A stretch of 64,000 bases of DNA from Schmidtea nova. Lineage: Eukaryota. How positions within the stretch are numbered: the first letter of the stretch is position 1; each line of letters starts with the position of its first letter. The notes beneath the pieces were generated by a model. The model saw only the letters and a list, made by a program, of their open reading frames with translations, did no database searches and had not been told where the DNA came from. Of this stretch, positions 5,811 through 64,000 are shown one piece after another. Both the position numbers and the translations under genes were made by a program. Where the stretch lies: assembly GCA_044892505.1 (NCBI GenBank), contig CM097883.1:314526001-314590000 (forward strand). The letters are read 5' to 3'.

Positions 5811-5831
5811 AAAATATTTTGAAAAAAAATT

Positions 5832-32631: not shown

Positions 32632-35600
32632 TATCATAATATTGTCAATGATAATTAACAATAATCGTGTTAATTATTGTTTTAATATTTTGTTTAAATA
32701 ACTTATCATTTTATAATAAATATAATTTGAATATTAAGAATTCTTATGCGTGCATTATAACAATGGCGTCACGATTGGAAGAATTGAATCTAGATGACAA
32801 CATCAATGTCGAAATATGGTTAACCGCTTTTGGTGCGATGAGTCGAGCCAATAAGTGGGTCGACAGTGACAAATCAAGACAAATCATGGACAACTTCCTA
32901 TCTGTATGTGGACTGAAGGCACTCACGAAAATCCAACATATGGCTTCTCCCAAATTGCTAGAGGAGATGACGTTCAGCGAGATCAAAGTCATGCTATTGA
33001 ACCACACACAGCCGAAAAGCAAAGTTGTAATAGCTGAGAGAGCAAGATTTTATCAGCTAAGACAGGAACCGAAAGAGAAATTAGCAGATTTCTATATCAG
33101 ACTCAAGAAAGCTGCTATATATTGTGACTTCAAGAAATTGAAGGAATCAACTGACCCCAACGAGGATATGCTCCTCATGGCATTGATATCGGGAATATAT
33201 GACATCAATGCTAAGGAAAAGATTTTGCTGCAAATGAGTGCTGGGATTCCAACATGCAACGAGATCCTCGCACAAATGCAAACATATGAGGAGATATCGA
33301 CGTTCATATCCCTCCAGCATGGAACAAAACTTACAATTACCTCTACGACCGATGAAATCAATTTCACTAAAAAGAAGAGATCAAACCTTGGAACATCAAG
33401 GAAATTCGAAGAGAAAGGAAATCAAAGGTGTCATTACTGTGATCGAATACACGAGCCAAAGAAATGCCCGGCATATGGAAAGAAGTGTACGAATTGCGAC
33501 AGAATGAATCATTTTGCGAAAGCCTGCAGATCTTTGACAAAGTCGATACACGGAACATTCGCAGATCAGACATCGTCAGCCGATAAAAGTGATACGCAGT
33601 ACATCAACCAGTTCACTTCAAATAATAATACAAGTGACATTAACCCTGTCCTCTTAGGTACAACGATAGTGAAAATGCAAAAAGATACCGGCGCATCTGT
33701 ATCAATCATATCATCCAAGATGTGGGAAGACATGGGAAGACCGAAGCTTGACAAGACAAGAAGAAAGCTTGAAGCCTACGATGGGCATATCATGCAATGC
33801 CACGGCTCGTTTCTGACAACTGTGGAATGGGAAAAGCAAGTGCTTCCGGTAACAATCACAGTCATTCAATCTATGAAGGACTTCGGACTAATAGGAATGG
33901 ATATACTGCAGCAGACACGACACGGAATCTTACAGTGTCAAATCACGAAGACAACAGAATCTCAAGTGTTACCAGCAATCAAAGGTATAAAAGCTTCTAT
34001 GGATTTAATCGACGATGCGAAGCCTATGTTCTGTAAGGCTAGGCCAATACCATTAGCTTTAGAAAACAAGGTCAACGATGAACTAATAAGGTTACAGCGA
34101 TTAGGAGTAATCTCTCCGTGCACCAAACCCGTACTGAATTCTTCGCCCGTGGTTTGGGTAAAAAAGAGCAATGGCGACCTCAGATTATGCGTTGACTTCA
34201 AAGTGCATATCAATAAAAAGATAAAGACCGATGCATACCCCATTCCGAACGTCGAAACAATTTTCTCAAAACTAAAGAATGCCAACAAATTTGCAAAGCT
34301 CGATCTCACATCGGCATATTGGCAGATAGAATTAGACGATAAAGCAAAGGAGATATCGTGCATAAATACGACAAAAGGTATGTTTATTGTAAATAGATTA
34401 CAGATGGGTATGAAGAACGCTGCTGCAATCTTTCAAAGGACAATGGAGCAAATACTTAAAGATATCAAAGGAATACTAATCTACCAAGACGACTTACTGA
34501 TTTATGCCGAGAATGAAGAATCACTAAGGAATAGACTGCAAACGGTAAAATCGCGCCTAAAAGAGAAAAAAGTTACAATCAACCAAGCAAAGACTATTGA
34601 ACTTACCAGTAGTGTTTCCTTCTTGGGTTTCGAAATATCGTCAAAGGGTATCACACCTGATAAAAGTCTCGTCAGCAAAATAAACAATATAAAAGAACCA
34701 ACATGCAAGGAGGAAGTAGAATCTTTCATCGGGTTAATTAATTACTTTGGTAGGTTAATTCCAAATTTTTCAGACAAAACAAGAGTAATCAACGAATTGA
34801 GAAAAAAAGGTGTAAAGTTCGATTGGAACAAGGAATGCTCGAACCAGTTCAAAGCACTAAAACAAGAAATTTCAACGTATCCAGTTGTGCAACCTTACAG
34901 CCTCGAAAAGGAAGCCACATTGACGACTGATGCATCTAAACACGCCATAGCAGCTGTCCTAACCCAAGATGGCCATCCTGTGATCTACATTTCCAGAACA
35001 CTTTCGGCTGCCGAAAAAATTACTCTAACATAGAGAGAGAGGCTTTAGCCATAGTATGGTCTATATCTAGACTACAACACTTCTTATTAGGGAGGAAATT
35101 CAAGGTGAATACAGACCACCAACCACTCCAATCCCTATTCGGTAGCGAATCACCGATTCCAAGGCGAACATCCAATCGAATTTCAAGGTGGGCCATGCTG
35201 TTGATGCAGTACGATTATGAAATATACTATGTTATGGGAAAGCAGATCCCGCATGCAGATGCACTATCAAGACTAAAATTCATCGATGAAAAGGAAGCAA
35301 ACGAGGAAATCAAAACCAAGAACACATTGAGTGTTTTCACGGTCCAGTTTAGCGAGGGCTTATTAAATGCCTCAGAGGTCAGATTGGAAACATCGCTAAA
35401 CGAGTTGGCCAGAGATATCATGCGTCGCATCAAGAAAGGCAATTGGTCGAAGTGCTCACAATCAGAAATGCCATTCAAGAAAATATCAGACCGACTAACA
35501 ATTGAAGATGGACTGATTTACCACGGGTCACGTCTATTCATTCCACCAAAACTAAGGAAGAAATGCATTGACATAGCACACAATGAGACACATTCTGGTC

Positions 35601-36632
35601 TACAATCAACATTTTACCGGCTAAAGGCATCATCTTGGTGGCCTGGAATCCACGGAGACATCGACAACTTCATTAGGTCATGTGCAATTTGCAAGAAACT
35701 ACATCCTCGCCCAGAGAAGAGCATTCACAAATGGCCAGAAGCGAAACCATTCCAAAGAGTACATATGGATTGGGCCCACATCAAAGAGGTGGGCGACGTG
35801 CTCATTATTGTAGACGCTGGTTCGGGATGGATTGAAGCCTTCAAGACATCCGATAAAACGAGTAAGTCAGTGATCACGTGCTTACGAACTGTTTTCACCA
35901 GGTTTGAAGTCCCGGAATGCATCGTCTCGGATAATGCCCAGGAATTCACTTCACATGAGCTAAACGCGTGGATCAACAGCCAAGGAGCAATGAAACTAGA
36001 ATCGCCGGCATACTTCCCTAGATCAAACGGATCAGCAGAAAGGGCTGTACAAACTGTCAAGAAAGCTCTCAAAGGATGGAACGAGCTTCGGACACATTGT
36101 GATTTCAATACCTTCCTACAGAAAATTTTATTCCACCACAGAATTTCATCGACATCGAGGGGGAAATCACCCGCAGAGATTGTTTTCGGGCGACAGCCTA
36201 GAGCTCCAATAATGTCTACATTTCAACAAGGCCAGGACATCTGGTACAAAGCCAGTGAGGATGTGGAACCAAAAGAGGGCGAATTTATCATGACTAAGGG
36301 CAACAACACTTCATACATCACCATCGAGAGTCAGAACGACAATGTGACGTTGGTTAGAAATAACCAAATCTCAGACCACCGGCAGATTCAGGAAGTCAAA
36401 GACGCACAACTTACGCAAGAAAAAGTACCAGCCGAATCCGACATTAGACGCAGTGGGAGACATCGATCGAAACATAGATGTGGGTGCTGCTGATGAAAGG
36501 ATATCATAATATTGTCAATGATAATTAACAATAATCGTGTTAATTATCGTTTTAATATTTTGTTTAAATAACTTATCATTTTATAATAAATATAATTTGA
36601 ATATTAAGAATTCTTATGCGTGCATTATAACA
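32632..36632 (+). mobile_element. Full-length Gypsy LTR retrotransposon (4,001 bp), young insertion with CAGAA TSD
   Basis: 131-bp LTRs at 32632-32762 and 36502-36632 with one mismatch seen. TSD CAGAA at 32627-32631 and 36633-36637. PBS TGGCGTCACG at 32764. Purine tract GATGAAAGGA before the 3' LTR. Confidence 0.93.
32763..36493 (+). pseudogene. Gypsy gag-pol (gag, CCHC, PR, RT, RH, IN) with one frameshift
   Basis: CPAYGKKCTNCDRMNHFAKAC, QKDTGAS, LIYQDD, TTDASKH, HNETHSG...CAIC, SDNAQEF and AERAVQTVK. A missing A in GAAAAAATTAC (~35013-35023) breaks AEKNYSNIERE. Confidence 0.9.
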
Positions 36633-47953: not shown

Positions 47954-48164
47954 CAAGCCAATTTCATTTATACAGAAGATTTATCAAAGCTTATATAGTC
48001 TTCCAATTTACAATCTCCCTCGTCGACGGCTGCTAAATTGTAAAGAATCAAAGATTGCTGAAAGAAAATTCAAGCCAATTTTATTTATACAGAAGATTTA
48101 TCAAAGTTTATACAGTTTTCCAACTTACAATCTCCCTCGTCAACGGCTGCTAAATTGTAAAGAA
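47954..48164. repeat. ~94-bp direct repeat x2 (47954-48047 and 48071-48164), possibly inside an LTR
   Basis: Visible duplication just beyond a candidate PPT (GCGGGGGGAA-TGT on the minus strand, 48253-48241). Confidence 0.8.
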
Positions 48165-48551
48165 GTGCTGGTGTGTTGGTTGGATTGACAACTGAGATCC
48201 TTATGATTTTATACGTTAGGGTGATCTCGCCAACATAAAAACATTCCCCCCGCTGACACCCATGATGTATCCCTAACTACTCATCATGTTGGTGCTGTGT
48301 CAACGTTGTGAAATGACAAGGCAGGTGAGCAACCTTTCGGCTACTATTCCCTTGTTTATTCACGGGTCCACCACTACCGATAGAAGGTGTCTGTGGCTTT
48401 CTTTCGGTCCCACTTATGCTCTTTTCTATTGTCCTAGGGTGATTCAATTTTATTACATCTGCGGCTTTAAATGAATCCGGGTTTTAGTTATATTCAATTC
48501 TCAGTCATTCCACAAACAAACAAGACAAGTCAAATCATTCGTTTTATACAT

Positions 48552-49115
48552 TTATTTATAGTTCAACAATACAGAGGGTCGTATTACATTTAGTAGTTCT
48601 TGCTCGGATAGACCACTGAGCAAGTCTACTTCGATTCCAAGGCGATCTGCATACGCGCGTCTCTCCCTACGCTTTTTCGCTCCCAAGCGATTCCGTCTCT
48701 TTGTTCGTTTCGAGCCTTCCAGAATGATTGGGGATGTTGGGGTAGTTGTGATTGGGATGGTTTCTATCTCCGTTTGGGTACTTGTTGTCATCGATATTGT
48801 GTCCACCCACCTATTAAAGGTGCTAGTCCTGATCACTGGGCGTAATTGCTCGGTGATAAACTCCTTGGTTGATGCCCTCAAGTAATTCGACAGCTCCATC
48901 TTTAGGGCTGCTACCTCCCTAGCTTGCTCGTCGATTGTTCGCTCCGCTCTGTATCGGGCTTGCAGGATAGTTTTAACCCTCTCTGGGTTGAACCACGTGG
49001 CTTTAATTCGCTGGTGCTCTTCGTTTAGTTGACGCAAGCGGTTTTCTAGGACTCGCGATCGTGCTTTATGCTCTTTGGCCTCTTGTTTGTAGTCCCTAGT
49101 CGGATGTTCACTCAT
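48552..49115 (-). CDS. Accessory ORF: coiled coil plus Arg/Lys-rich motif
   Basis: ATG 49115 preceded by TTTTACAGAG. Heptad-rich N-half and KRTKRRNRLGAKKRRERR. The ORF track extends to GTG 49172. Confidence 0.65.
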   Translation of the reverse strand: MSEHPTRDYKQEAKEHKARSRVLENRLRQLNEEHQRIKATWFNPERVKTILQARYRAERTIDEQAREVAALKMELSNYLRASTKEFITEQLRPVIRTSTFNRWVDTISMTTSTQTEIETIPITTTPTSPIILEGSKRTKRRNRLGAKKRRERRAYADRLGIEVDLLSGLSEQELLNVIRPSVLLNYK

Positions 49116-49306
49116 CTCTGTAAAATGTACAATTAATCGGGTTATGTATGGTTTGTCTGTTCTCTCAGTCACTATCTTTATTATTAAACCGGTGTTTCAC
49201 TCTCAGATCACTTCATGCATTCAAAGACATAACAAAACCCAAAAATTAATACATTTATTTTTAATACACCTCTCATCTTTCTTCGAATGATCGATTTCCT
49301 TGCGAT

Positions 49307-49942
49307 TTAGATGAAGGTTCGTAATTCCTGGTCGGCCGTGTTCTCGTCACGACGGATTCCACTTTCGTAGTAGAACTCCGGGGCGGGGCTCCAACTTAAC
49401 TTGTCCCGAAAGATGAATACCTCCCAGAGACGAAGGTCTTTGGGCTCGGGTTGTTGGTCCAACGAAACGCTTCCCGGCGCGTTTGAGTAGGCGAAGACTT
49501 CCCCAGTGTCGCCACACCGAGGCCTGTCTAGCAGCAGGTAACCGAGTTGATGTAGCTCTTTTCCGGACATCATTCCAGTACTTAGTAGCCAGCGGGGCTG
49601 CTGTGCTTCATCCACGAATTGGTAGAACCATCGGGGATTCTCCGGTTTGCTATGATCCGAGGAGGGTACCCAATCAGTATCTCCTTCCCACCGCAACTGT
49701 AGTCCAAACGCGCAAGCTGGGGTGCTAGCGGCTGAGCTCATGTGAGCCCTCATCCATCGTCGTAGGTGGCGACGTGATACTTCTGCGACCTTTCGAGGTG
49801 CTTCGTTCTCTCCTCTGATGTTTATGATCGTATTGGGTCGGATGACGGAGCGGGTGCGCCGTTTCTTACGAAGGATGGTGTCCTCTATCTTTATCGGGTG
49901 CGCGGTCATCGGCTTCTCTTGGAAATTCTCTAGTTTCACCAT
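49307..49942 (-). CDS. Accessory ORF, unknown function (basic N-terminus, Trp-rich globular C-terminus)
   Basis: 211-aa ATG-initiated ORF, GC-richer, with an acceptor-like TTCTTTAG upstream and AATAAA downstream. Confidence 0.65.
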   Translation of the reverse strand: MVKLENFQEKPMTAHPIKIEDTILRKKRRTRSVIRPNTIINIRGENEAPRKVAEVSRRHLRRWMRAHMSSAASTPACAFGLQLRWEGDTDWVPSSDHSKPENPRWFYQFVDEAQQPRWLLSTGMMSGKELHQLGYLLLDRPRCGDTGEVFAYSNAPGSVSLDQQPEPKDLRLWEVFIFRDKLSWSPAPEFYYESGIRRDENTADQELRTFI

Positions 49943-51014
49943 AGTATTTCTAAAGAAGATGGTTGTTTGTTAACTATGGATTCTATGGTATAACGGGCCT
50001 ATTTATATTAGTCAACCCACCCGTTATACTTAATTTTCAACACTCATGTGTAACCACTCAGCTTTAACAGTTTTTATTTATCGATAATACTATTTAATCA
50101 CATTCAATCTCATCAGTCGTTTTCAATTACTTCCTCATCTAACCAGCAATGATCATACCATGTCGGGTAATTCTCGTAAGTACCTGTGATCCGTACACGC
50201 TGGGGTTCATCATTTTATCAGTTCTCAATGCCTGTGATTTATTTATCATCTCTCTTGGCGATTAAACGCGTCTGACAGAGGTTATCGATTACCCTTAACC
50301 CTTGATACTAGGTTCACTATGCCCGAACTCGTAAGCGCTAATGTTGACATATACCTACCCTCGTCGTCACCTAATTCATCGGCACTAATATTATTCACTA
50401 CACGTCTATCCCTCGTCTAGACTTCACCGCGATATATGTCCTTCCTATAAAACGGGTTTCACTTTGCGCTCGTTTACGACTACTAGTTTATACTCGATAC
50501 CCTATCATCGTGATGTATAACGTTTACATTAGATCATCTCTACCTTGATTTCGTTCATGATCATTAGGTCTTACTCGATACCCTATGTGCATTTAACCCC
50601 TTCCGCTTTCCAAATATTTAATACACCTATGGTCCCGCCGCATCAGCACCTCACAACCGAAAGATTGTGTTGCGCTGAGAGGCCCCAAGAATCCGTCAGG
50701 CTGTTAGGCCTCCGGAAAACCTTATGGATTTTAATATGGTTATAAACAATTATGAGGGTTTAAATACATCAATAACATAACTCCAAATTACCTTTTATTT
50801 TCGCTTCGAAATCGGTATTACAACGTTTTCAGTAAGTCACAAGAGCTTACACTTGGTAAAAAATGACATATTCAAATACTGATTTTACTTCAGTATTTAT
50901 ACTGAACCGGTGTTGTTGGTTAGCCAATCAGCATCGAGTATGTGTGTTTGATCATTATTCTGTGTTGCCGGCTTTTTGCTGCCTAACTTAACTCGCCGAT
51001 TTGTTTGGTTAATC

Positions 51015-51320
51015 ATGCGGTAAGTTTATTTTTTGTACGATTTAATTTTTATTTGATTTTGCTTTAGGTCTTCGGTGACATCCGCCCACGCGCTGTCATA
51101 TTCCAATTTTTTCTGCTTCGCATGAGTGAGTTTTGAAGATTTTTGTTGTTTTGATTAATATGTTATTTCTTTTAGATGTTGCCGCCTATTTTGTTACGCT
51201 TTGGTGTTGGTAATTTATTTTGTTGTTATTCTGTATTTAATTTATTTTATTGATTGTACATTATTTTCAGATGCTGCTCGATTTGGCTGGCCCAACATCA
51301 CTCGGGGTCCCCTAAAATTG
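51015..51320 (+). ncRNA. Candidate spliced antisense transcript (three GT-AG introns of 48, 50 and 61 bp)
   Basis: Introns at 51020-51067, 51126-51175 and 51210-51270 with GTAAGT/GTGAGT/GTAATT donors and T-rich ..TAG/CAG acceptors. Only very short ORFs. Confidence 0.5.
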
Positions 51321-51499: not shown

Positions 51500-52024
51500 T
51501 CAGGTCCTTTCACTGGTTGACTGCATTTCGTATCGGGCTTGGATTTGTCGTAGATGACTTCTCATCCTTTGTTGGGTTTTTGCTTCTCTTTTGGCGCATC
51601 TACACATTATCGTTTGTTGTTGTTTGAGGCTTCTGATTCGGTATAGGGTATACGTAATCACGATGATCAGGATGATTGTCAGTATTGTCATTGTGACTAT
51701 TCCCACGATGATCCATCTGTTTCGGATTTCGGATTCGATTTGGGTTTGACCTTTGATTGGCTTTAGGTGATCTTGAAAGGTTTTATGGATTTCTCGGATC
51801 TTCTCGATTTGATCGAATAAGGTTTGTAAGGGTTTGCGATGATCATGACTGATTCGCATTTGTCGGATTAATTGTTTCAAGTCTTCTCTGACTTCGTTTA
51901 ATTGTTTTTCGATCTCCTGGGATATCTCATTTGACGGGGTTCTTTGGATTTCGGTTGTCGTACAGTTCGTGATTGCTGCTGTTAACATAATAGTTAGGAT
52001 TGGTAGGGTTTTGAGCCAGTTCAT
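51500..52024 (-). CDS. Accessory type I membrane protein (signal peptide, coiled coil, TM, basic tail)
   Basis: MNWLKTLPILTIMLTAAITNC signal, heptad ectodomain, TM WIIVGIVTMTILTIILIIVITYTLY. Confidence 0.75.
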   Translation of the reverse strand: MNWLKTLPILTIMLTAAITNCTTTEIQRTPSNEISQEIEKQLNEVREDLKQLIRQMRISHDHRKPLQTLFDQIEKIREIHKTFQDHLKPIKGQTQIESEIRNRWIIVGIVTMTILTIILIIVITYTLYRIRSLKQQQTIMCRCAKREAKTQQRMRSHLRQIQARYEMQSTSERT

Positions 52025-52097: not shown

Positions 52098-53258
52098 TTA
52101 CACATCCGTCTCCTCTGGTTCATGGAACCCTTCATCTTGGAGTTCCATTGGTGGTGGTGGTATAAACGGTAACCACACCACTCTGCTTCGCCACATTGCA
52201 ATTTCATCTTGATACGTTCGAGAGATTTGTATCTCTTCGTCTAACAGATACTCCATGTAGTCTGATTGTTCGCTCAGAGTTTCAATTTGTCTTTCCATCT
52301 CTTCCACTTTTCTCTTCAGGGCTTCTACTTCTGTTGGTTCGGTTTCTATTTCTCGGGTTTCTTTCTCTGCTTTCAGGGTTATTATCTGCTGTTTCAGTTC
52401 CTCATTTTCTTTCGTCAAGTTCGTTATATTTTCCTCATAAGCTCGGTTTGATTCCGCATGCCTTTCTTTCACTGCTTTCAACTCCATTTTCTTTTGGGTC
52501 ACCACCCCTTGATAACCATTTACATCTCTTTCCAGGCTTTCTTTTTCCCTGATCAACTTTTGTCTTTCCGCTTCCTCTTTTTGTCTAATGCCTCGCATTT
52601 CTCCATTTATCATCTGTATTTGCCATTGCGTTTTCTTTAGTTCCTTTGCTTGCTCTCGAATAAATCGTTGCCGTTTTCGACTCCATTCTTTGTTTGCTTG
52701 TTCTTGTCGCTTTCTCTGTTCCAATTCCTCTTTCAATTCGTCTATCTCTTGATACAGTTTCCAATCTTCGCTGTATGCTGTCTTTCTGATTATCTCTTTG
52801 GCTTCTTTATACACTCGTTTAGACTCCATCTTCCAATGTCTCGCTTGAGCCTTGATAGCTAGTATTTTTACCTCCATCTTTTCCTCTTGTTTCTCCCTCT
52901 CTTCTCTTCGCGTTTTCATCATATTTTTATAATGTTCTGCTTGTTTCCTCATCAACTGATAGACATCTTCTATCTTCTGTCGACTTCGTACATTCGTTCC
53001 TTTTAGCTTCTCTATTTGTGTTGTCAGTTGTACTATCTCTTTATTCACTTCCTCGAGTTCTAGTTGGTATAACTCCATTCGTCTCTCGCATTTTAGTTTC
53101 TCGTAGTAATTATTTGTCATCACTTCGTGTAATTCTCTGGTTCTTTGTTCTACTTCCATTTTACATCTCCTTTCGATTTCTCTTTCTATTGTTTCTTGTT
53201 CGTTCAACATCTCGCTTCTCGTTTCATCTTCGATTCCATGTTCATTTGCGTTTTCCAT
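52098..53258 (-). CDS. Accessory long coiled-coil (SMC/myosin-tail-like) protein
   Basis: 386 aa of continuous E/K/R-rich heptads with a C-terminal PPPP. Confidence 0.75.
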   Translation of the reverse strand: MENANEHGIEDETRSEMLNEQETIEREIERRCKMEVEQRTRELHEVMTNNYYEKLKCERRMELYQLELEEVNKEIVQLTTQIEKLKGTNVRSRQKIEDVYQLMRKQAEHYKNMMKTRREEREKQEEKMEVKILAIKAQARHWKMESKRVYKEAKEIIRKTAYSEDWKLYQEIDELKEELEQRKRQEQANKEWSRKRQRFIREQAKELKKTQWQIQMINGEMRGIRQKEEAERQKLIREKESLERDVNGYQGVVTQKKMELKAVKERHAESNRAYEENITNLTKENEELKQQIITLKAEKETREIETEPTEVEALKRKVEEMERQIETLSEQSDYMEYLLDEEIQISRTYQDEIAMWRSRVVWLPFIPPPPMELQDEGFHEPEETDV

Positions 53259-53347
53259 TCTGTAATTTACAAATTTACACTTGTTATACTATATGTTTAT
53301 TGTTGTCGTCGATTTTTACACTTTATTTACAGGGTCGTTCACTCTGA

Positions 53348-54760
53348 CTACTCTAACCATCCTTTCGTTGACTTCGTGTTCATCACTGTTATACTTGCTT
53401 TCTTCTCGATTTCCAATTCTACGTATAGGTTGTCGTCGTACAACATTTCCCACATTGTTTGGTGTGGTATGAATTTTGGTTCTCCAGTCGCTAATGAACA
53501 TTCTGTGGTTGGTCTTTTGTAAGCTTCGTGCTTACCATCAATTTTGAATATTCTCGCTATTGTTTCTTTCGAGTTTCTCACTCTCATTATAGCCTTTGTT
53601 TCTAGTGGCCATTCTAATATGTCGTCGTAACCACCTTTACACAACGCAAAGAATAATGACACATGCGTTTCCTTTCCTGATCCATCTCCATTTGGATAAA
53701 TTCTCATCCGGACTTTGTATCCGTTTTTCCACAGATAGAATGGTGGACTTGTTACCGACACTTGACTTCCTGCTTTTGCTGCTGTGAACTTTTCGTTGAA
53801 GTTCTTGATTTTCCATATATATGGTGCAACAGGTAAACTCTCGATATCCTCCGCATCTCGTATCCACATTTGATGTCGCACGTTTACTTCTTTTACCAAT
53901 GTCTCTATGACTTTGATTTTCTCCATCATTTTCTCTCTGGTGAGCTCGAATTGCTCTCTCGTTTCCAGTAATAACTCCGTCATTATCCTCTGAGATTCAA
54001 TTTCTTTTCCCAGTTTCTGTATGGTTTGTTCCATTCCGTTCAAATTTTCTGTTAGCATCTCGGCGTGTTGTACCGTTTCCGTTTCCAAATGCTCTTTCAT
54101 CTCTTTGTTCGTTTTCTTTACTGCACATCCTTGTTTACTCCATACGCACTTTCTTGGTCTTGATTCGCATTGTTCCCAGTGTTCTCTCAACATCACTTCT
54201 TCTCCGGTTCCGCAATTACTTGGACAAATTCCTCTGAATTTTCCACACACTTTCTCTTCTGCTACGTTGAGATGTTCATTTTCGATTACTTCTCTCGTCT
54301 CTCTTTGTTCGCAGTATTGACACTCTATTATCTCTGCTTTGCACTCATCCTTGTGCTTTTTCGACTGCTTGATGGTTATCGTCTGTTGACACTTTTCACA
54401 TATCGCTTTCTTGTTTTCGCATTTTCCTAGATGTTGTCTTAGCTCGATTATTTGTCCTTTCCATTCACAGGGTTGGTTTATACATTCTGTTTTTATCTTC
54501 CAGATCTCCTTTTGTATTGCTTTGTCGGGTTTTGTCTCGTTGATCAGTAGTTTATCGTCGCACTCTGGGCACTTTCTTGTCTCACTTTCACTGATTATTT
54601 GTAGTATACACTTGGTGCACATCCTGCATCCACATTCCGTTTGTCTCGGTTTTAACATTAAATTTTTACACTTTACACACGTCACATTTACTCCCCATTG
54701 TCGATTCTCTCCTCTTAGAATCTCGATTGTTTGGTAATCTGCTTCGCTTTCTGCTCTCAT
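53348..54760 (-). CDS. TRAF: TNF-receptor-associated factor (RING, TRAF zinc fingers, coiled coil, MATH), intronless
   Basis: CVKC..CGCRMCTKC..CPEC RING, several CxxC..H..C fingers, and MATH YIWKIKNF..SPPFY..GYKVRMRIYPNGDGSGKETHVSLFF..GGYDDILEWP. Confidence 0.93.
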   Translation of the reverse strand: MRAESEADYQTIEILRGENRQWGVNVTCVKCKNLMLKPRQTECGCRMCTKCILQIISESETRKCPECDDKLLINETKPDKAIQKEIWKIKTECINQPCEWKGQIIELRQHLGKCENKKAICEKCQQTITIKQSKKHKDECKAEIIECQYCEQRETREVIENEHLNVAEEKVCGKFRGICPSNCGTGEEVMLREHWEQCESRPRKCVWSKQGCAVKKTNKEMKEHLETETVQHAEMLTENLNGMEQTIQKLGKEIESQRIMTELLLETREQFELTREKMMEKIKVIETLVKEVNVRHQMWIRDAEDIESLPVAPYIWKIKNFNEKFTAAKAGSQVSVTSPPFYLWKNGYKVRMRIYPNGDGSGKETHVSLFFALCKGGYDDILEWPLETKAIMRVRNSKETIARIFKIDGKHEAYKRPTTECSLATGEPKFIPHQTMWEMLYDDNLYVELEIEKKASITVMNTKSTKGWLE

Positions 54761-54849
54761 TCTACAACAATATTTACATCAATTTCCCCATATTTTTGAT
54801 TTTTCTGGTTCTTTATTTACACGTATTTACACAATTTTCCGCTTATTCA

Positions 54850-55200
54850 CTATACATCCTCCGTTGAATCTGGCTCTGGATACACGTCTATCTCATTTAC
54901 AATCCAGCTCGTCCAACTATCCGGTATCTCCTCCTCTTCATGTCTCGTTAATCGATCAATTTCCTCTGCTTGCCAGTTGTTCACTTCATTTAATGTTCGG
55001 TTCTCGTTCTGTAATTCGTTTATCTGTATTTGTTGGATCTCGATTTTGTTCATTGCTTCGAAATTACAGTTATAACTCTCGGTTAATAATTGCGTTTTGG
55101 CCGTCAACTGGCTCTGTAATTCATTTACTGTTCTGGCTAGCAGGTCGCATTGCACTTTCCATCTCGTCATCATCAACATCTCGATATTTTCTTGGTTCAT
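54850..55200 (-). CDS. Accessory small coiled-coil protein
   Basis: 116-aa ATG ORF, Q/E/N-rich heptads, acidic end. Confidence 0.65.
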   Translation of the reverse strand: MNQENIEMLMMTRWKVQCDLLARTVNELQSQLTAKTQLLTESYNCNFEAMNKIEIQQIQINELQNENRTLNEVNNWQAEEIDRLTRHEEEEIPDSWTSWIVNEIDVYPEPDSTEDV

Positions 55201-55326: not shown

Positions 55327-58300
55327 CTATACAATCACCACGGGTTTTCCTTCGTACAGTTCTTCGTCCTCGATCTGTACCCACATCTCTTCATGTCTTG
55401 ATCGTCTTTTCAGTTCTTCTCGTACTTCTTTTGGTAGTTTTATGTTATAATTCATGACCTTTACGTCTGGCCATTTTACTGCTATGGTCTTATTTCTCAT
55501 GCCATATCTCCAACATACTATCATGACCATTATCAGTGGAATACACGCTATGAATACTCCCATGCTGATTAATCCCATTATTGTTTTCCCAATGCTCATC
55601 TTCGGAGTTTCACTTTGGTTTGTCATCACGCCATATTGACCTTTCCATTCTGCTTCCCATTGTTCATATTGTTGTTGTCTCTGTCTGACTTCTTCGATCA
55701 CTTTCTCGGGTTCCCATCTTTCTTGTTGATTTTGTAGTATTTCCTCCGTCTCTGTTTGTTCTCTTTTCTGACTCAATTCTCGGAATTCTAACTTGCGGGT
55801 TCCCCCTTTTATCGTTATGTTCCTTGGCGTGTAATAGGTTTCGCACCTTTCTTGTTGATTTCCTTGTGCGTCTACTTCTTCGATTGCACACACTTCGTAT
55901 TCTGCGTTTGTTTTCAACCTCCTCATTTCTACCTCGATTATTTCCCTTTTGTCATTTGATGTCTTTTGACAGTTTCGTGGAGACTCTCTCATACTGTTTG
56001 GCATTAATGTCCAACAGATTTCTAGGACCTTTTTATGGATCTTCCATATTATCAGAGTCGTTGATTCCGGTTCGTTTTTTATTGACGTCCCTTCTGTTGT
56101 CTGTTGAGTTCCTTGACTGTTGGTTGTCGTGGTTCTTCTTGACTTTCTTTTCCTTTGTCGACTTCCTCCCATTTCGATCGTTCTTGTACCGTTAATTTGC
56201 TCTGGCGTCTTGTACAGTCTGCACTCCAGGCTTCTTTGTATTACTTCTCTTATTCTTCGGATTACGCAAATTTCGTAAGCTTGTCCGACTTCGAATCCAT
56301 TTAGTTGAAACGGGATTCCTCGTTCTCTCGTTCTGCATTGCGGTATTATGATGTTGGTCGGTATTCCGATGTATTTTCTCCAACACATCCCAATTGTTCT
56401 CCGACCAATGTTTTTTATCTCCACGGTTACTACTTCATTCGCAATCATTTCTTGATCTTGTTTCTTTCTTTTTGGGAACTCAATTATCTCCTTTGCTTGG
56501 AACACTTTACACTCGCTTGTTCCTGGTCTGTTTCCGTTTGCTGCTTTTTCCATGAGGCATAGTTCACATGTTTTCTCTGTTTCCATTTCAGTTATCTCGA
56601 TTTCCTCGTTTGTCTCTGCCTCTCGACTTTCTCTTGTTTCGCTGATTCCAATTACCTCATTGTTTCGTCCCCAACATCTTCCGTTCGTTGTTCGTTGGTC
56701 TTGGATATTTACTAACGTCATCACGCTGATATCTATGTCCTCTATGATTCTCTTAATGAGGATTAATATTAATGCTACACATATCAATTCTGGTTGGAAT
56801 GTTAATTTGCCCGCTGGATTTTTGGTTATTCTTTCTTTCTCTGTTCGGTTTCTGATTCCCTCTTCTGCTTCGGTTTGATTCTCCCCTTTCTCTGGTTCCA
56901 CTTCTGTTCTTCTCGTTGTCTCTTCGCTTCTTTTCTCAATCCATTTCTGTATCTTCAGCGCTTCTGTTGCTTTGTATAGTTGACATGCAGTTACTTGAGG
57001 TGCTTTTGGTTCTCCTCTCTGCTTTACTGCGCATATTATGTATGACTTTTCTTTCTCCAACCCTTTGATTTGGATGACGTCTCGCTTCAAATCTGACAAT
57101 ATACACTTCAGCGTATCGTTTTTCCCCAGGTTTTCTTTCCAGCATATTCTTTCGTATACTTCATTTCCTCTAATTATCTCTAGCGTGACGTATTGTTTCT
57201 TGGCTTCTCCTTGTCCGATGATTGTTAACAATATCGCAATACACAACATTTCCGGTCTTAAAAGTAGACTTCCTGTTCGTTTTCCATAGTTCGTACTTTC
57301 GTCTTTTGTTCCTCTGTTTTCTCGTTCTTCGGCTTCTCCTTTCTTGTCGTTTCTCGTTGGCTTCGGTTCTTCTTGTCTTTCTTTTTCATTATCCTCCGTT
57401 CTTTTGTTGTCATTGTCTTCGTTGTTCTCTTCGTTGTTACTTTTGTCGTCGAAGTCTTTGTAACCACCCCCTGGTCCTTTGAAAATGTCGTCCTCGACAT
57501 TAATTTCTTCAATCAATCTTTCATACGCTTGAACCGCGAGTGTGCTAGACTCGAATTCACGTATTTCCATATCCTTAGATGGTTCTATGTCTTCTAGTCT
57601 ACTTTGCTTGATTGCTCCTTTGGCATTTGCCCATTCATTCACATATTTTCTGAACAAGTCTTTCCATCTTCCCGTTCGTTCCTGTTCCTTTGGATTGTTC
57701 GTGAATTTCAAATCTCTTCTCTTCAGGAATTCTTCAACTATCTCTGGCTTTTTGTGTCTTAATAACGCGCTTCTGATACACCAATTCTGATTCTGTTCCA
57801 TATGGTCATTGATCTTGAACGTTGGTTCCTTGGTTATCGGATTCACCCATGTTAGTAATGCTCTCGTTTTCTCTATGTCGTGTATCATTACTGTTAGACT
57901 GAAGTTCTTTACGTTATTCGCCAGGTATTCGATATCGTCTTGCTTCTTGATGGACTTTATGAACTTGATCATCTCGAAGTTGTTCCACTGTATTGCGATG
58001 TCTATGATGGAATTATTCTTTCCATTTTTCCCTTCGATTTTTGCTCCTGCTTCGTATAACTCGTTTAGCACTTTGCAGTTCGTCTTCTTCCTCGCTGCGA
58101 TTATCATGATTGTGTCTCCGTTATCATCAACCGTGTTCATGTCTGCTTCGCATTTGACCATCGCTTTCGTTATTTCCAGCACTTCGTTTTCTTTCTTTCG
58201 ACGTAATGCCCAGTGTATCGGTAGTCTTCCATCCTTTGATAAAAGGAATGCTACTGGCATTTGGTTCTTGATCGTTTCTATGTCACTCTCGTTATAATCC

Positions 58301-61300
58301 CCTTCTGCATATCTGTGCACTTTCTCTGTAATTGTTCCTAGTATTTCCAACGAATTTTTATTCTCTTTGAATTCCGATAATTTTTCCTGTGCTTTTGCTA
58401 CGATTGCGTCTAATCTCTCTTGATAATCGGCTTTTGCATTGAACAACACTGCTTTGCTTCTTATTCGTGTTTGCATCTGTTTCATCCGTTGGTCTTGATA
58501 TACTGCTTGTCTGAAGAATTGTCCATAATTCAATGCTTCCACCAGCTCTTTATATCGCTTGCTTATTTCTTTGTGCTGCTTTTGGATGTCATAGAAATGT
58601 TCGAAACTCATATCCGGATTCCATTGCTTATCGCCCCATTTCTTGATTAATCCGAATAATTCTTTCTTTCTGTCTTCCAACTTGTATTCTCTTGGGTTCT
58701 CGCTGACCCGTAGCGTATCTCTCGCTATCAACACTGCAAGTGTTTTTGGATCGTATGTTACTTCTAGTAGATGTTTCAGTAACGCATTTTCCCCCCTTGT
58801 GAATACTTCATTACAATTTACGACCCACGAATCTCCTTCTGGTCGTTTCCACTTTAGCAGTATCCTCCAGGTTTTACTGTTCTTTACCTCGATTGCTTGT
58901 TTCATAATCGATCTTCTGGTTAGTTCATCGATTTCCCACGTGGCATTCTCTGTGATATACTTCAGTATTCGGTGATTCGCTCTATCAATTGCATGATTCA
59001 AGAACGTTCGTCCTTCTTTATCTTTTGTCATCCAATTCGATCTGGTGTTTCCGAATAGCTTGATTATTTCATCGTTTCTTCCGTGAATCGTCATCATCAT
59101 AAGTGGAGTAATTCCTTCCCAGTTCACTTTGTCAATTTCTCCTCCACCTTCGAGTATCATTTCTACGATCTCCTTCACTTTCTCGTTTCCACTGTGCTTG
59201 ATTGCATTATGTAACGCGGTATTACCATCTTTGTCTTGTAGATTCAATGTCTGAGGGATCTCCTCTAGCAGCGTCCTTGTTATTGGATGTGCTGTTCTAT
59301 CCTTAGCATACTCCATTACATTCTTTCGAACTTCTGACAGTATATTGAAATCGAACCACCATTTCCATTCTGGTATGATTTCTCTGGTCCTCTTTGCCAG
59401 TTCTTTGATGTCTATTGCTTCTCTTCGATTGTCTTCTAGACTTGTTTGCGGCTTTTGTTGTACTCGCAACATACTGATTCTCGCCGTCTGTGATCTTGTC
59501 ATTACCCGTTTCTCTGGTGATAGAGTTGCTGTATTTGGTATTTTCCTGCATCGACATGCATTCACGTATATTGGTCTTACCAATGGATTGTTCACCAATC
59601 GTACTCGCACATTGTTTTCGTTTACGGTTGTTATTTCGTATGGCCCTTTGCCTGGTCGTTGGAGTTTCTTGACCGTACCGGGTATTATCTCTGGTGTTTC
59701 GATTATCACCCAATCTCCAACTTTTAAATCATGTGCTTTCACGTTCCTTTTCTGATCATGTAGATCCTTATAACTTTCTTGATAGAACTTGATGTTTAGT
59801 TCCGCCGTTTTCCAGATCTCTTGCATTCTTTCTTTGAACTTCGTCACGTAATCGTCAACCTCCATGTACTGTGATAATGGTGGTTGGTATTCTAAATCGA
59901 TCGGTAAGTTGCAATCTCTTCCGTACATCAGTTGAAATGGACTTAGCTTTGTTGCCGCATGTATTGACATTCTATATGCCATCAAACACAAGTTGATATA
60001 CTCGTCCCAGTCAGTCTGATGTTTACTGACGTAATTCGACAACATGCGTATCAATGTTCCATTGAACCTTTCCGTTTGACCGTTCGTTTGTGGATGGTAT
60101 GGGGATGTTCGTAATTTCGCAATTCGGAAGTAATTCGTAACTTCGTCTAATATTTCACTCATGAAATTCGTTCCTTGATCCGTTAGGATTTTCTTTGGTG
60201 TTCCGTATCTGCAGCATATTTCTTCCACCAATATTCTCGCGACTGTTTTCGCCTTTTGATCCGGTATTGCGAATGCTTCTGGGAACTTTGTTAGATAGTC
60301 CGTGACTACTAATATGTATTGATTTCCCTTCAAACTTTCCGGCAATGGTCCAACTACATCCATTGCTATTGTTGCCATTGGTTCTGCAGGTATTGGCATA
60401 GGTTTTAGTGGTGTTTTCCACTTTGCTCCGACGTTCTTTCTTGTCGCACAGGTTAAGCAGTTCTTTATCCATTCTTTCACATCATCTTCCATGGTTGGCC
60501 AAAAATACTTTTGTCTCAATCTCCCGATTGTCTTTTTCGCTGACATGTGTCCGCCTAATTTTCCGTCATGATATTGAGTCATGATTTCCTTTCGCCTATT
60601 CGCAGGTAAGCACATCAATCTCCGTTCTCCATCTTGTATCAATAACCATCCTTTTTCCATCACATATCTATGTTGATATTTCTGCATATGTTCGCGTAAC
60701 GTTTGGTTCTTGCCGAATATTTCCATTTCCCTTTCTTTCAGATACTTGCTGATCAATCCCAACTCCTCATCTTCGAGTTGATCTTTCCTTAATTCGCTGA
60801 AATCCAAATCTTCCGCTATTAATGCACATATTTTTTGAGCATTCAGGTTCACCAATTCTGGAAATGTAAACCTTGACATGCAATCCGCGTTTGCATTTGC
60901 TTTTCCTGCTTTAAACTTTATGAATGGCGAGTATTCTTGTAACTGCATTGCCCAACGCATCAATCTACTTGATGATTCTTTATGTTGGCCTAACCATACC
61001 AATGGTTGATGATCCGTCGTGATATATATTTCATGACCCCACAGCAGGTACTTGAAATGCTTGATTGCTAATATTATCGCATAGGCTTCTCTTTCTGTGA
61101 CTGAGTAATTCCTTTCATGTTTTCTGAACGTTCGACTATAATATCCGATTACTCTCTCTTTGCCTTCTTCATCAAATTGGCCTAGTACTGCTCCTGCTGC
61201 GTATCCACTTGCATCTGTTGCCAACAAAAATGGCTTCTTAAAATCTGGGTGGACCAATATTGGTGCTGTAATCAGCTTGTCCCGTAATGTCTCAAATGCT

Positions 61301-64000
61301 GCTTGCTGTTCTGTTCCCCACACAAACGATACATCTTGTCTTACCAATTCTTGCATTGGCTTTGATATTCCTACATAGTCCTTGATAAACTTTCGATAAT
61401 ATCCACACAATCCCAAAAATTCTTGTATTTGAGTCACTGTCTTTGGTGGTGGACATTCTTTGACTTTTTCGATATTCCTTGGGTCTGGTTCTTTTCCTTT
61501 TGCTGATACAATGTGACCTAAGAATGTCACTTTTTCTTTTGCCCAATCGCACTTTGACGGCTTTAATTTCAGTTTCCACTGTCTCAATTTCACGAACACA
61601 TTTCTGATGTCTTGCAAGTGATCTTCGAATGTTGCGGAGTAGATCAATAGATCGTCGATATACACCATGCATTGTTTTATGCCATGTGTTACGAAATTCA
61701 TGCATCTCTGGAATGATGCTGGCGCGTTTGTTAACCCAAACGGCATTTTCTTGAATTGGTACAGATCTCGTCCGATTGTAAATGCTGTCTTTTCTTTATC
61801 CTCATCTTTCATTTTGATCTGCCAATATCCGCTTTTTAAATCTAGTGACGTGAAATAAGCTGCTCCTTGTAACGTCAACAACATTTCGTTTATGTCTGGC
61901 AGTGGGTACGTATCTCTTTTCGTAACTGCGTTCAATCGTCTGTAATCGATACAGAATCTCTGAGTTCCATCCTTCTTTTTCACCATCACCACTGGGAATT
62001 GCCAGGGTGAGCAACTAGGTTCGATGACCTCTGCATCTAACATCTTTTGTACCTCTTCTTCTGCTACTGCTTTTTGAGCTTCTGCCAGTTTATATGGTCT
62101 TAATGCGATTGGCGTTTCGTCCGTCAACGGTATCGTGTGCAATGTTACATCACATGTTCCTAAATCCAAATCTGATGCTGCGAATATATCTTTATATTCC
62201 ATCAACAGTTTCTGTAACTGTTCTTTTTGTCGTTCGTCTAACAACACACTGTCGATTTTCCATGGTAATTCGTCTTTGCTTTTCTCGTTCTTGTCTGGTA
62301 TTTCGATTTCGGACATGGGTGTCAATTTACCCAATCTCTCATTCTCATATATTATCTTGTCCTCTTCGTCGAAGTTCACCAGATTGATCGGTATTTCTCC
62401 TTCTTGGTTTATCGTGACCAATTCTCTTGCCATTGGTAATTCTTTCTTCACTTCGAACTTCTTACTTGGTTCGAATACCATATCTCCTTTTATTGTCGAA
62501 TCGATCTTGACGTAGCACATCATTTCGTGTCTCGCTGGCACTACTATTTGTTCCGCACTTGCCACTTTAACTTTCATTCTGCAGATTTTTCCTGTTCTGT
62601 CTTTTAGCTTCATTGCTCCTAGATCAATTACGATTTCCTTGAACAGGTCTGGCATCAGGTCAGTTCCAATAATACATGGTACACTCAGCGATGGTATTAC
62701 AGCGATGTACGTGTTGATCTCTGCACCTCGATGCTTAATTTTTACAAACCATCTTCCGGCTACTTCTACTGTCTCCTGACTGCACGCGATTACATGTACA
62801 TTCGTTTTCTCAATTTCTCCTTGGTTTTTCTCGGGTATATAGTTAATGTCGATTGCCGAAATATTCGCGCCTGTATCGATCATAGCTTCAATTTCTCTGC
62901 CATTTATTTCTACGGTTGTTGTTAAGATCGGTCCCATATTTGTGGACATAACCGCTATCGTGTGCGTGTCTTCCAACGAGTTTACGCTTCCGCCTCGTTT
63001 TACTTTGCATCCTTCGGGAATTATCGGGTATATACTTGTCATCGGCATCATCTGCCTCATATTCGGCTTCGCTTTATATATCGGTTCGTTATACATTGAT
63101 TGGGGTGGAGCACTGTATCTCCAATTCTCAACCGCACTCTTTTCGGTATATTGTGGAATCTGGTTTATATTCGCTTGTCCTCCTCGATCGTCATCATCAT
63201 CTTCATCATTGCTTGAATCATCTTGCGTTCGATATCCTCTCACTCTTTCCCATAATCCTTTCCTTTCCTTCTTCAGTTGTCGCCTTGCTTGTTCGTCTTG
63301 TATTATCTTTTTGAATTTCCTTCCAACATCTTCATTTGTTCCTTTCATTTTCGCAAGTATCTTCAACAACCTCTTTATTCGATGTATGTCTTTTGAGTGT
63401 CCGTGTAACACCATCGTTTTCGCAAGGAATGGTAAAAACCCTACTACCATTTTCCAATTCACTTTCTTTTCTCTCTTGTAGATGTCGAAACACGCTAACA
63501 TTTGAGTTATTATCACTCTGACGATTTGTATTATCAGTATAACCCCCAGTATTCCAGCCATCATTTGTCCAAATATCAGGAATCTTCCCCACATTGCCTT
63601 CATCATATTTTCTGTGGCTTTCTTGAAATGTGCCGGTGACAACAACAGTTCGTAATTCGGTCCTTCTCGATAATTCGTTCCTCCCGTTATTGTTACGATA
63701 TTTGACAGTAATGCTTCTCTTCTTGCCGGGAATAATATATTCTGCCTTGCCGCTTCTAAATCTTTTGGACTATAGATTCCGTTGTTTGAGACATCTACGT
63801 CACTGAACTGTCTATCCTTTGACAACTGCATTAGCTCAAATTCTCTTGGTGCTAATACTTCAGTTCTTCCTGGGAACATAACCCATTTGCCATCTGGCTT
63901 CTGATAAAGCGGTCCGTACGCATTACTACAGTTGAATGGATTTGGTTCAAAACTTGGTGGATTGATGATTCTCGTCACCGGTTGAACGTATCGTACTTTT
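55327..64000 (-). CDS. Polyprotein: env-like glycoprotein C-terminus/TM, PR, RT, RNase H, IN, ankyrin repeats, FN3-like modules, TM
   Basis: Open to the window edge (KVRYVQPVTRII..). AMIDTGANIS (62877), FCIDYRRLN, VYIDDLL (61662), LATDASGY, YHDGKLGGH..CLTC, MDVVGPL/TDQGTNF/ERFNGTL, QDKDGNTALHNA and C-terminal TM IMGLISMGVFIACIPLIMVMIVCW. Confidence 0.92.
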   Translation of the reverse strand, partial: KVRYVQPVTRIINPPSFEPNPFNCSNAYGPLYQKPDGKWVMFPGRTEVLAPREFELMQLSKDRQFSDVDVSNNGIYSPKDLEAARQNILFPARREALLSNIVTITGGTNYREGPNYELLLSPAHFKKATENMMKAMWGRFLIFGQMMAGILGVILIIQIVRVIITQMLACFDIYKREKKVNWKMVVGFLPFLAKTMVLHGHSKDIHRIKRLLKILAKMKGTNEDVGRKFKKIIQDEQARRQLKKERKGLWERVRGYRTQDDSSNDEDDDDDRGGQANINQIPQYTEKSAVENWRYSAPPQSMYNEPIYKAKPNMRQMMPMTSIYPIIPEGCKVKRGGSVNSLEDTHTIAVMSTNMGPILTTTVEINGREIEAMIDTGANISAIDINYIPEKNQGEIEKTNVHVIACSQETVEVAGRWFVKIKHRGAEINTYIAVIPSLSVPCIIGTDLMPDLFKEIVIDLGAMKLKDRTGKICRMKVKVASAEQIVVPARHEMMCYVKIDSTIKGDMVFEPSKKFEVKKELPMARELVTINQEGEIPINLVNFDEEDKIIYENERLGKLTPMSEIEIPDKNEKSKDELPWKIDSVLLDERQKEQLQKLLMEYKDIFAASDLDLGTCDVTLHTIPLTDETPIALRPYKLAEAQKAVAEEEVQKMLDAEVIEPSCSPWQFPVVMVKKKDGTQRFCIDYRRLNAVTKRDTYPLPDINEMLLTLQGAAYFTSLDLKSGYWQIKMKDEDKEKTAFTIGRDLYQFKKMPFGLTNAPASFQRCMNFVTHGIKQCMVYIDDLLIYSATFEDHLQDIRNVFVKLRQWKLKLKPSKCDWAKEKVTFLGHIVSAKGKEPDPRNIEKVKECPPPKTVTQIQEFLGLCGYYRKFIKDYVGISKPMQELVRQDVSFVWGTEQQAAFETLRDKLITAPILVHPDFKKPFLLATDASGYAAGAVLGQFDEEGKERVIGYYSRTFRKHERNYSVTEREAYAIILAIKHFKYLLWGHEIYITTDHQPLVWLGQHKESSSRLMRWAMQLQEYSPFIKFKAGKANANADCMSRFTFPELVNLNAQKICALIAEDLDFSELRKDQLEDEELGLISKYLKEREMEIFGKNQTLREHMQKYQHRYVMEKGWLLIQDGERRLMCLPANRRKEIMTQYHDGKLGGHMSAKKTIGRLRQKYFWPTMEDDVKEWIKNCLTCATRKNVGAKWKTPLKPMPIPAEPMATIAMDVVGPLPESLKGNQYILVVTDYLTKFPEAFAIPDQKAKTVARILVEEICCRYGTPKKILTDQGTNFMSEILDEVTNYFRIAKLRTSPYHPQTNGQTERFNGTLIRMLSNYVSKHQTDWDEYINLCLMAYRMSIHAATKLSPFQLMYGRDCNLPIDLEYQPPLSQYMEVDDYVTKFKERMQEIWKTAELNIKFYQESYKDLHDQKRNVKAHDLKVGDWVIIETPEIIPGTVKKLQRPGKGPYEITTVNENNVRVRLVNNPLVRPIYVNACRCRKIPNTATLSPEKRVMTRSQTARISMLRVQQKPQTSLEDNRREAIDIKELAKRTREIIPEWKWWFDFNILSEVRKNVMEYAKDRTAHPITRTLLEEIPQTLNLQDKDGNTALHNAIKHSGNEKVKEIVEMILEGGGEIDKVNWEGITPLMMMTIHGRNDEIIKLFGNTRSNWMTKDKEGRTFLNHAIDRANHRILKYITENATWEIDELTRRSIMKQAIEVKNSKTWRILLKWKRPEGDSWVVNCNEVFTRGENALLKHLLEVTYDPKTLAVLIARDTLRVSENPREYKLEDRKKELFGLIKKWGDKQWNPDMSFEHFYDIQKQHKEISKRYKELVEALNYGQFFRQAVYQDQRMKQMQTRIRSKAVLFNAKADYQERLDAIVAKAQEKLSEFKENKNSLEILGTITEKVHRYAEGDYNESDIETIKNQMPVAFLLSKDGRLPIHWALRRKKENEVLEITKAMVKCEADMNTVDDNGDTIMIIAARKKTNCKVLNELYEAGAKIEGKNGKNNSIIDIAIQWNNFEMIKFIKSIKKQDDIEYLANNVKNFSLTVMIHDIEKTRALLTWVNPITKEPTFKINDHMEQNQNWCIRSALLRHKKPEIVEEFLKRRDLKFTNNPKEQERTGRWKDLFRKYVNEWANAKGAIKQSRLEDIEPSKDMEIREFESSTLAVQAYERLIEEINVEDDIFKGPGGGYKDFDDKSNNEENNEDNDNKRTEDNEKERQEEPKPTRNDKKGEAEERENRGTKDESTNYGKRTGSLLLRPEMLCIAILLTIIGQGEAKKQYVTLEIIRGNEVYERICWKENLGKNDTLKCILSDLKRDVIQIKGLEKEKSYIICAVKQRGEPKAPQVTACQLYKATEALKIQKWIEKRSEETTRRTEVEPEKGENQTEAEEGIRNRTEKERITKNPAGKLTFQPELICVALILILIKRIIEDIDISVMTLVNIQDQRTTNGRCWGRNNEVIGISETRESREAETNEEIEITEMETEKTCELCLMEKAANGNRPGTSECKVFQAKEIIEFPKRKKQDQEMIANEVVTVEIKNIGRRTIGMCWRKYIGIPTNIIIPQCRTRERGIPFQLNGFEVGQAYEICVIRRIREVIQRSLECRLYKTPEQINGTRTIEMGGSRQRKRKSRRTTTTNSQGTQQTTEGTSIKNEPESTTLIIWKIHKKVLEICWTLMPNSMRESPRNCQKTSNDKREIIEVEMRRLKTNAEYEVCAIEEVDAQGNQQERCETYYTPRNITIKGGTRKLEFRELSQKREQTETEEILQNQQERWEPEKVIEEVRQRQQQYEQWEAEWKGQYGVMTNQSETPKMSIGKTIMGLISMGVFIACIPLIMVMIVCWRYGMRNKTIAVKWPDVKVMNYNIKLPKEVREELKRRSRHEEMWVQIEDEELYEGKPVVIV

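Follow-up and report, generated by a model that had tools for sequence, protein, structure and literature searches.

A full-length TRAF is selected cargo of a Burro-type Gypsy retrotransposon in Schmidtea nova

The window, that is, the whole stretch of 64,000 nucleotides of Schmidtea nova DNA that we analyzed, carries on its minus strand (53348–54760) a single uninterrupted reading frame coding for a TRAF of 470 amino acids with the order RING, zinc fingers, coiled coil and MATH. In Pfam, MATH_2 matched residues 314–451 (E 3.7e-27), and zf-TRAF (170–224) and TRAF3_RING (28–67) matched under their curated cut-offs; these last two regions were assigned from Pfam together with a reading of their ligands. 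The RING (aa 28–67; 54560–54679, minus strand) is all-cysteine (C4C4), with ligands C28, C31, C43, C45, C48, C51, C64 and C67, and C45 replaces the usual His of C3HC4 (CGCRMC). The TRAF-type zinc fingers (aa 93–229; 54074–54484, minus strand) number four to five in total, with the sets C93/C98/H110/C114, C121/C124/H136/C140, C147/C150/H163/C172 and C179/C183/H194/C198 and a possible fifth at C205/C212/H224. All 34 Cys and His residues of the protein are invariant in 30 of 30 copies. An AlphaFold2 model built on a 52-sequence alignment (mean pLDDT 92.5) places a continuous helix of 78 residues, the coiled coil (aa 229–306; 53843–54076, minus strand), before the MATH or TRAF-C domain (aa 314–451; 53408–53821, minus strand), which was identified by Pfam, sequence and fold. 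Among the fold matches listed for the model, 28 of 28 are TRAFs, and in sequence comparison with solved structures the MATH domain is nearest to TRAF5, TRAF3, TRAF2 and TRAF1 (E 4e-27 to 5e-25), followed by TRAF4 at about 1e-19 and then TRAF6. The first-pass annotation had described a complete RING, zinc fingers, coiled coil and MATH domain with the RING His changed to Cys, and Pfam, the ligands and the model bear this out.

The TRAF sits downstream of pol, ahead of the 3′ LTR, in a young Gypsy LTR retrotransposon with Burro-type anatomy, an assignment that rests on that anatomy and sets the element beside Burro1-4 by description, not by reference sequences. The 3′ LTR (48166–51297, minus strand; 3132 bp, TG...CA) differs by 4 mismatches from the 5′ LTR, which lies beyond the window (L032:3160-6291, window frame 74160-77291, minus strand), and the 4-bp target-site duplication GAAG at 48162–48165 (plus strand) is repeated beyond the other LTR; it is this LTR pair and this duplication that mark the insertion as young and fix its length at 29,126 bp. 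The insertion target was a 117-bp repeat at 47954–48165. The primer-binding site is a 19-nt match to the 3′ end of the host tRNA-Pro(TGG), and the same site is used in the related families B and D described below. Elsewhere in the genome, tRNA-Pro(TGG) forms a tandem array with a 308-bp period (G000:C1:459.61-459.66 Mb; L157), whose pattern has 899 genomic matches and one unit of which reads as tRNA-Ile(TAT) via anticodon changes.

On the minus strand, the gene order of the element is LTR (with two ORFs), RING ORF, gag, env-PR-RT-RH-IN-ankyrin-tail, ORF116, TRAF, ORF386, ORF174 and LTR. The domain order PR-RT-RH-IN that characterizes Gypsy elements was recovered with Pfam, and family A, to which the window copy belongs, also has a Gag with CCHC knuckles and ankyrin repeats. 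The polyprotein part that falls in the window (55327–63999, minus strand, running past the window edge) comprises env (fusion glycoprotein), protease, RT, RNase H, integrase, ankyrin repeats and a C-terminal hydrophobic segment, the env match being upstream of the protease in the same frame. In the window copy the frame is split between gag and the remainder; unsplit frames of 5,076–5,114 aa are present in 26 of 112 family-A copies. Before env, where Burro elements have a BCL2-like motif, there is a helical stretch containing GGW, for which PDB sequence and atlas searches gave no usable match and a single-sequence fold reached a pLDDT of 43.7. MATH_TRAF_C cargo is present at a position unlike that in Burro1, and in the family-A ORFs scanned we found RING only and no BIR. 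A RING-only ORF (152 aa, PF13920; L032:2143-2601, window frame 73143-73601) sits between the primer-binding site and gag in families A, B and D, and the LTR contains ORF211 (49307–49942) and ORF187 (48552–49115), both on the minus strand and each with an acceptor-like site. Family B likewise carries two ORFs inside its LTR.

The remainder of the window holds several unrelated features. These are a non-LTR RT ORF of 1257 aa (16458–20844, minus strand), which follows an ORF matching a Ulp1-type peptidase, a small Gypsy-type element with 135-bp direct repeats and a split pol (32628–36632, plus strand), CNOT1-like pieces (24949–26184, minus strand), an ORF that matches a Pox_A32-type ATPase and may derive from a Polinton-like element (849–1472, minus strand), and a 15-bp tandem array (4536–5900).

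Upstream of the TRAF lies the conserved ORF116 (54850–55200, minus strand; pairwise dN/dS 0.06). Downstream are ORF386 (52098–53258, minus strand), an accessory ORF whose product is charged and coiled-coil-like, is conserved in its C-terminal tail and gave no Pfam match, and ORF174 (51500–52024, minus strand), which has a hydrophobic N-terminus and one hydrophobic stretch and likely codes for a membrane protein. The C-terminal tail of ORF386 (52098–52140), DEGF-x-E...ET-x-V, is kept in all four element families (homologues in L102, L148 and L156), and from the likeness of the motifs we take it to resemble a phosphomimetic beta-TrCP degron and a PDZ-binding end. As had been stated from the letters, 89 nt separate the TRAF from either neighboring ORF. 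TGTAAATA motifs are present in the upstream spacer (54761–54849, minus strand), where an acceptor-like TAG stands 1 nt short of the TRAF ATG, and the downstream one (53259–53347, minus strand) contains TGTAAATAAA and then an acceptor-like CAG 1 nt before the ORF386 ATG.

This layout is operon-style, with same-strand ORFs about 100 nt apart (spacers of 73–126 nt between the same-strand accessory ORFs of family A) and an acceptor-like site before most of them. Of 26 accessory ORFs from four families, 23 have a YAG no more than 7 nt from their first ATG, compared with 4.8 expected by shuffling and with 24 of 95 internal ATGs as a control; because the element families are related, these do not amount to 26 independent events. 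Family-A spacers, 381 nt in all, contain the motif TGTAAATA 5 times, vs. 0 times in 11,247 nt of coding sequence, and AATAAA itself shows no enrichment in the spacers (3 vs. 2.1). Moreover, the acceptor region before the TRAF is near-invariant among copies, whose synonymous sites differ by about 0.25. The acceptor-like sites, the spacer motifs and this near-invariant region together point to separate processed mRNAs for the accessory ORFs, TRAF included, which may be produced by cis-splicing from the 5′ end or by spliced-leader trans-splicing, a process that resolves operons in the flatworm Macrostomum (PMC8629364). A donor-like GTAAGT is found in the family-A leader and no GTRAG donor was found in the 2 of 2 family-B leaders read, so we discarded the idea of a cis splice donor conserved across families, present as it is in family A only. 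Four contig sets from one study, of unspecified kind, covered all 30 bins with 0 informative joints and carry no weight either way.

To count close copies of the TRAF, we scored the best 90 of 3195 candidates from a protein search. Each of them is close to full length with an identity of at least 95%, and 85 are free of stops. Every one is in an element context, 77 by integrase offset and 13 by their flanks (5 among the 30 fetched loci and 8 of 8 among the rest), and both neighboring ORFs are common to the 30 fetched loci (30/30). A domesticated close copy outside elements was thereby rejected, none being present among the 90 scored. In a reverse census starting from 112 integrases at 93% identity or more, the TRAF downstream was full-length in 100 and partial in 5, and none was found within 9 kb in the remaining 7, which also lack ORF116 and part of the 3′ pol. 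This census added 23 full-length copies, 11 of them uninterrupted. A 22-nt motif from the beginning of the TRAF has 132 matches in the genome, against 0 for its reversed control, and was present in 29 of the 30 loci checked, which puts family A at roughly 130–140 copies. These counts bear on how many genomic TRAFs adjoin a Gypsy pol, and they describe a multicopy, element-bound gene rather than the single-copy, independent one that the first-pass annotation had named as the contrary case. Its central claim stands as well, the TRAF being an uninterrupted 470-aa frame carried as cargo by a multicopy Gypsy element.

Three further element families, B, C and D, carry related full-length TRAFs. Family B, 52% identical to A, gave 62 dispersed matches among 84 scored, of which 8 were read, and the 2 contexts read are both full elements. 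Family C, at 54% identity to A, accounts for 87 of 92 scored matches, 82 of them full-length (5 contexts read), and family D, at 35%, for 91 of 91 (2 contexts read). Protease and ankyrin are kept in both family-D contexts, and in the 2 copies read no RT, integrase or env match was found between the RING ORF and ORF116; family D is apparently a non-autonomous element. Directly after its TRAF comes a BIR-RING IAP ORF (2/2 copies read) and then several accessory ORFs, as in L156:877-3724 (G000:C3:57.97 Mb) and also in L153. The IAP gave 106 of 106 matches at 97% identity or more, and since many of its copies are 100% identical family D would have been recently active; a homologue search with the IAP returned no match. 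The cassette order ORF116 - TRAF - (IAP) - ORF386 is fixed in the four families. Altogether there are at least 348 full-length element-type TRAFs (113 + 62 + 82 + 91), a count behind which context was read for 9 copies of families B–D. Several family-C polyprotein frames measure 5,140 codons stop-to-stop, a figure equal, possibly by chance, to that given for Dugesia tigrina ORF1 (PMC6431247).

The TRAF is under purifying selection, with dN/dS of about 0.1. Pairwise dN/dS was 0.108 among 22 family-A copies picked by integrase, a sample drawn from 35 such loci missing from the top TRAF list, which leans towards decayed copies and from which the three most diverged (L144, L146 and L147) and those with less than 90% coverage were left out; the value of 0.082 obtained from copies picked by TRAF similarity is biased low. 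Variants common to several of the 22 copies have a dN/dS of 0.109 and 0 stops, and singletons 0.24 and 11 stops. Constrained, stop-free shared variants beside looser singletons with stops are what would be expected of a protein that is under selection during element replication and degrades once a copy has inserted. Within the TRAF, constraint is strongest on the RING, whose shared-variant dN/dS of 0.04 (26 copies) falls between those of integrase (0.02) and the ankyrin region (0.10). Between families B and C, dN is 0.12 and dS 0.96, and comparisons of A with B or C are saturated. It is near certain that the TRAF is selected cargo of the element.

We then compared the element TRAFs with those of the host. 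In a MATH profile search, of which the best 150 of 2393 candidates were scored, the top 57 matches do not belong to family A and fell mostly (49/57) at G000:C2:405-455 Mb, tandem arrays included; a word-indexed TRAF search returned only 7 distant proteins. The 30 host-type MATH loci that were read consist mostly of MATH in a short open frame, likely a last exon, together with several single-exon full-length TRAFs. AT skew is low in all 30. The element TRAF ORF, with an AT skew of 0.41 and an A3 of 0.46, is close to pol (0.36 and 0.44) and unlike four host TRAF ORFs (0.10–0.15 and 0.30–0.35), which agrees with the codon skew noted earlier as common to the TRAF and its element. Element fragments lie a few kb from some host TRAFs, and 3 of the 30 loci have a weak polyprotein match. 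Two supposed signs of capture did not survive this comparison. Six full-length host TRAFs outside the element gene order are single-exon and have a CGC RING, and the Cys at the RING His position is found as well in Dendrocoelum TRAF-2 and TRAF-4 and in two echinoderm TRAF3-like proteins. Neither the change from His to Cys as an innovation of the element nor the lack of introns as proof of retro-capture can therefore be upheld, and the C3HC4 His is not defining for TRAFs across animals.

In a 27-row tree under a mixture model, whose outgroup of 10 rows includes 6 named proteins from cnidarians, brachiopods, molluscs, echinoderms or sharks, families A–D and two unnamed element-like proteins (P0009 and P0052) form one clade (100/99). 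This clade is nested within another that includes host and Dendrocoelum TRAFs (100/100), apart from the outgroups, and trees of 30 and 66 rows agree. Triclad host and element TRAFs are grouped against other metazoan TRAFs with 100/100, and with 100/99 in further trees; this kinship, like the Burro-type anatomy, fits a triclad host. Since the element TRAFs are a single clade inside flatworm host-type TRAFs, the phylogeny that had been called for suggests that one old capture from the flatworm host TRAF family is the likely origin; a biased amino-acid make-up common to the element TRAFs could also draw them together in trees. In a MATH-only tree, which took in 7 of 10 cluster rows and 20 of 24 other rows, the short-frame MATH sequences of the host cluster (100/100) are separate from the element clade (100/98), and a derivation of the host cluster from the element is not supported. 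The suggestion that element-borne copies account for part of the planarian TRAF expansion holds for the copy number found in this genome, with at least 348 element TRAFs vs. at least 57 host MATH matches, but not for the diverse host expansion, because the host MATH cluster is a clade of its own. Among the TRAF forms found here, that of the element is now the most frequent.

What might the TRAF do for its carrier? The partnership of TRAF2 with cIAP is known in mammals. We give a probability of about one half to a role as a trimeric adaptor that feeds into TRAF-IAP survival signalling in cells with an active element. On this view the gene now present as a 3′ accessory ORF in the Burro-type Gypsy LTR retrotransposon would stem from a single capture out of the TRAF family of the flatworm host and be expressed from a processed subgenomic RNA; its protein would form a trimer and act as an adaptor in TRAF-IAP signalling, keeping element-producing cells alive while the element multiplies. 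The direction of capture, expression by splicing, trimer formation, the partners and the pro-survival effect are all steps that we infer. We favor this reading because cell death goes up in S. mediterranea when host TRAF is knocked down by RNAi (PMC7586133), stem cells are protected by Burro1 B-IAP (second-hand, PMC13465017) and family D pairs a TRAF with an IAP. In family A, where the stretches scanned gave no BIR, the TRAF would depend on an IAP supplied in trans by the host or by family D. It is doubtful, if conceivable, that the elements are operon cassettes whose RNA is cut by the host spliced-leader machinery, with TRAF and IAP rebuilding a survival complex on which stem cells partly depend; were this true, hundreds of mobile copies would supply a captured TRAF and IAP in a virus-like manner.

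The TRAF might instead be a dominant-negative decoy that enters trimers of host TRAFs or sits on receptors, dampening JNK/p38 or the innate defence against the element, which we regard as unlikely but worth serious attention. Relative to mammalian TRAFs, the MATH groove of family A has SSS changed to HEA at 411–413 and Cys to Glu at 427, with R353, Y355, D359 and F405 kept, all positions that presumably have functional roles. The element RING has K30 where four of six host RINGs have Ile, at what we take to be an E2 contact. Such altered groove and RING surface residues count against the adaptor and speak for a decoy, as does the 29–37% identity at which families A, B and D match both the best host TRAF and one another's deep lineage, and the evidence of purifying selection applies equally. 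Nevertheless, one Dendrocoelum host TRAF also has Lys at the K30 position. In families B and C the groove triad retains Ser/Thr; all ligands of the RING and zinc fingers are invariant and constraint is strongest on the RING, features that a pure decoy would need less.

Less probable is a role in the life cycle of the element itself, in which the TRAF would scaffold or ubiquitinate env, the polyprotein tail and ORF174 for assembly or release with little effect on host signalling. Its fixed place in the four-family cassette would suit such a role, and the element does encode env and other proteins with hydrophobic segments; family D, however, keeps TRAF and IAP in copies where RT, integrase and env matches were not found (2 read), and the published co-cargo of BIR and BCL2 points to apoptosis control (PMC6431247). 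We think it very unlikely that the copies now mainly serve the host, with regeneration depending on element-borne TRAF. The Burro1 IAP offers a precedent for such mutualism (second-hand, PMC13465017) and 85 of the 90 scored family-A copies have no stop, but the contrast between constrained shared variants and singletons with stops indicates selection during transposition and later decay, and no element-free close copy was seen among those 90. A neutral passenger, or an ordinary host gene beside the element by chance, can be dismissed in spite of the single-exon TRAFs of the same type in the host, given its place within paired LTRs, a dN/dS of about 0.1, an element-like codon skew and retention across four families down to 35% identity.

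The complete element-borne TRAF turns a published hint into a testable case. MATH_TRAF_C, BIR, ankyrin, BCL2-like and in-frame env cargo have already been reported in Burro, and interference with apoptosis and ubiquitination has been proposed (PMC6431247). Burro1 RNA rises after smedwi-2 RNAi (PMC8532177). The 121 MATH domains of S. mediterranea are described without a link to Burro in the relevant passages of PMC6109357, the available text of the TRAF RNAi study contains no word starting with "transpos" (PMC7586133), and the available parts of PMC11410931, PMC13524379 and PMC13238120 add nothing on TRAF cargo. We found no description in print of a full RING-to-MATH TRAF in these elements, which Jurka 2007, Grohme 2018 and Lee 2026 may cover, nor of its single origin, selection or acceptor-like sites (23/26 ORFs) in a literature search outside which the main Burro papers fell. 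Selection has preserved a full signalling adaptor, and not a stray domain, while four element families diverged. Element copies may confound planarian TRAF counts, RNA-seq mapping and TRAF RNAi, and the layout makes one ask by what means a single LTR element expresses at least seven separate ORFs.

Finally, the element can be set beside the systems it resembles. As described in the Burro section of PMC6431247, Burro1-4 (GYPSM1) of S. mediterranea are likewise about 30 kb and have a CCHC Gag, PR-RT-RH-IN, ankyrin and MATH_TRAF_C, with env in frame between gag and pol in a polyprotein near 5,000 aa, as in family A. The published Burro size exceeds 30 kb, so that the present element is slightly shorter; MATH lies inside ORF1 in Burro1-4, whereas here a complete TRAF is a separate ORF downstream of pol; and BIR, a variable cargo of Burro, was not found here in the ORFs scanned in family A and belongs to a separate BIR-RING ORF in D. 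Closer in this respect is the Burro-like element of Dugesia tigrina, whose MATH_TRAF_C is in a separate accessory ORF, although this ORF is reported upstream and with the MATH domain alone named, and copy census, selection and origin are not given in section 7 of that source (PMC6431247). The BIR-RING protein of family D recalls Burro1 B-IAP, a host-derived apoptosis regulator on a planarian Gypsy element (Lee et al. 2026 Dev Cell, via PMC13465017); that work concerns the IAP, which has a tested function. Mammalian TRAF2, TRAF3 and TRAF5 are the best solved-structure matches of the MATH domain, but they have a C3HC4 RING with His and are not mobile, and receptor or IAP binding by the element protein is putative. 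The nearest relatives are the triclad CGC-RING TRAFs (Dendrocoelum lacteum TRAF-2 and TRAF-4; L036, L037, L040, L046, L058 and L110), which share domain order and clade with the element TRAF, are about 450–490 aa long with the same all-cysteine RING and, in this genome, are single-exon. From these the element TRAF is set apart by an identity of 27–32%, A-rich codon use, a changed MATH groove and its hundreds of copies.
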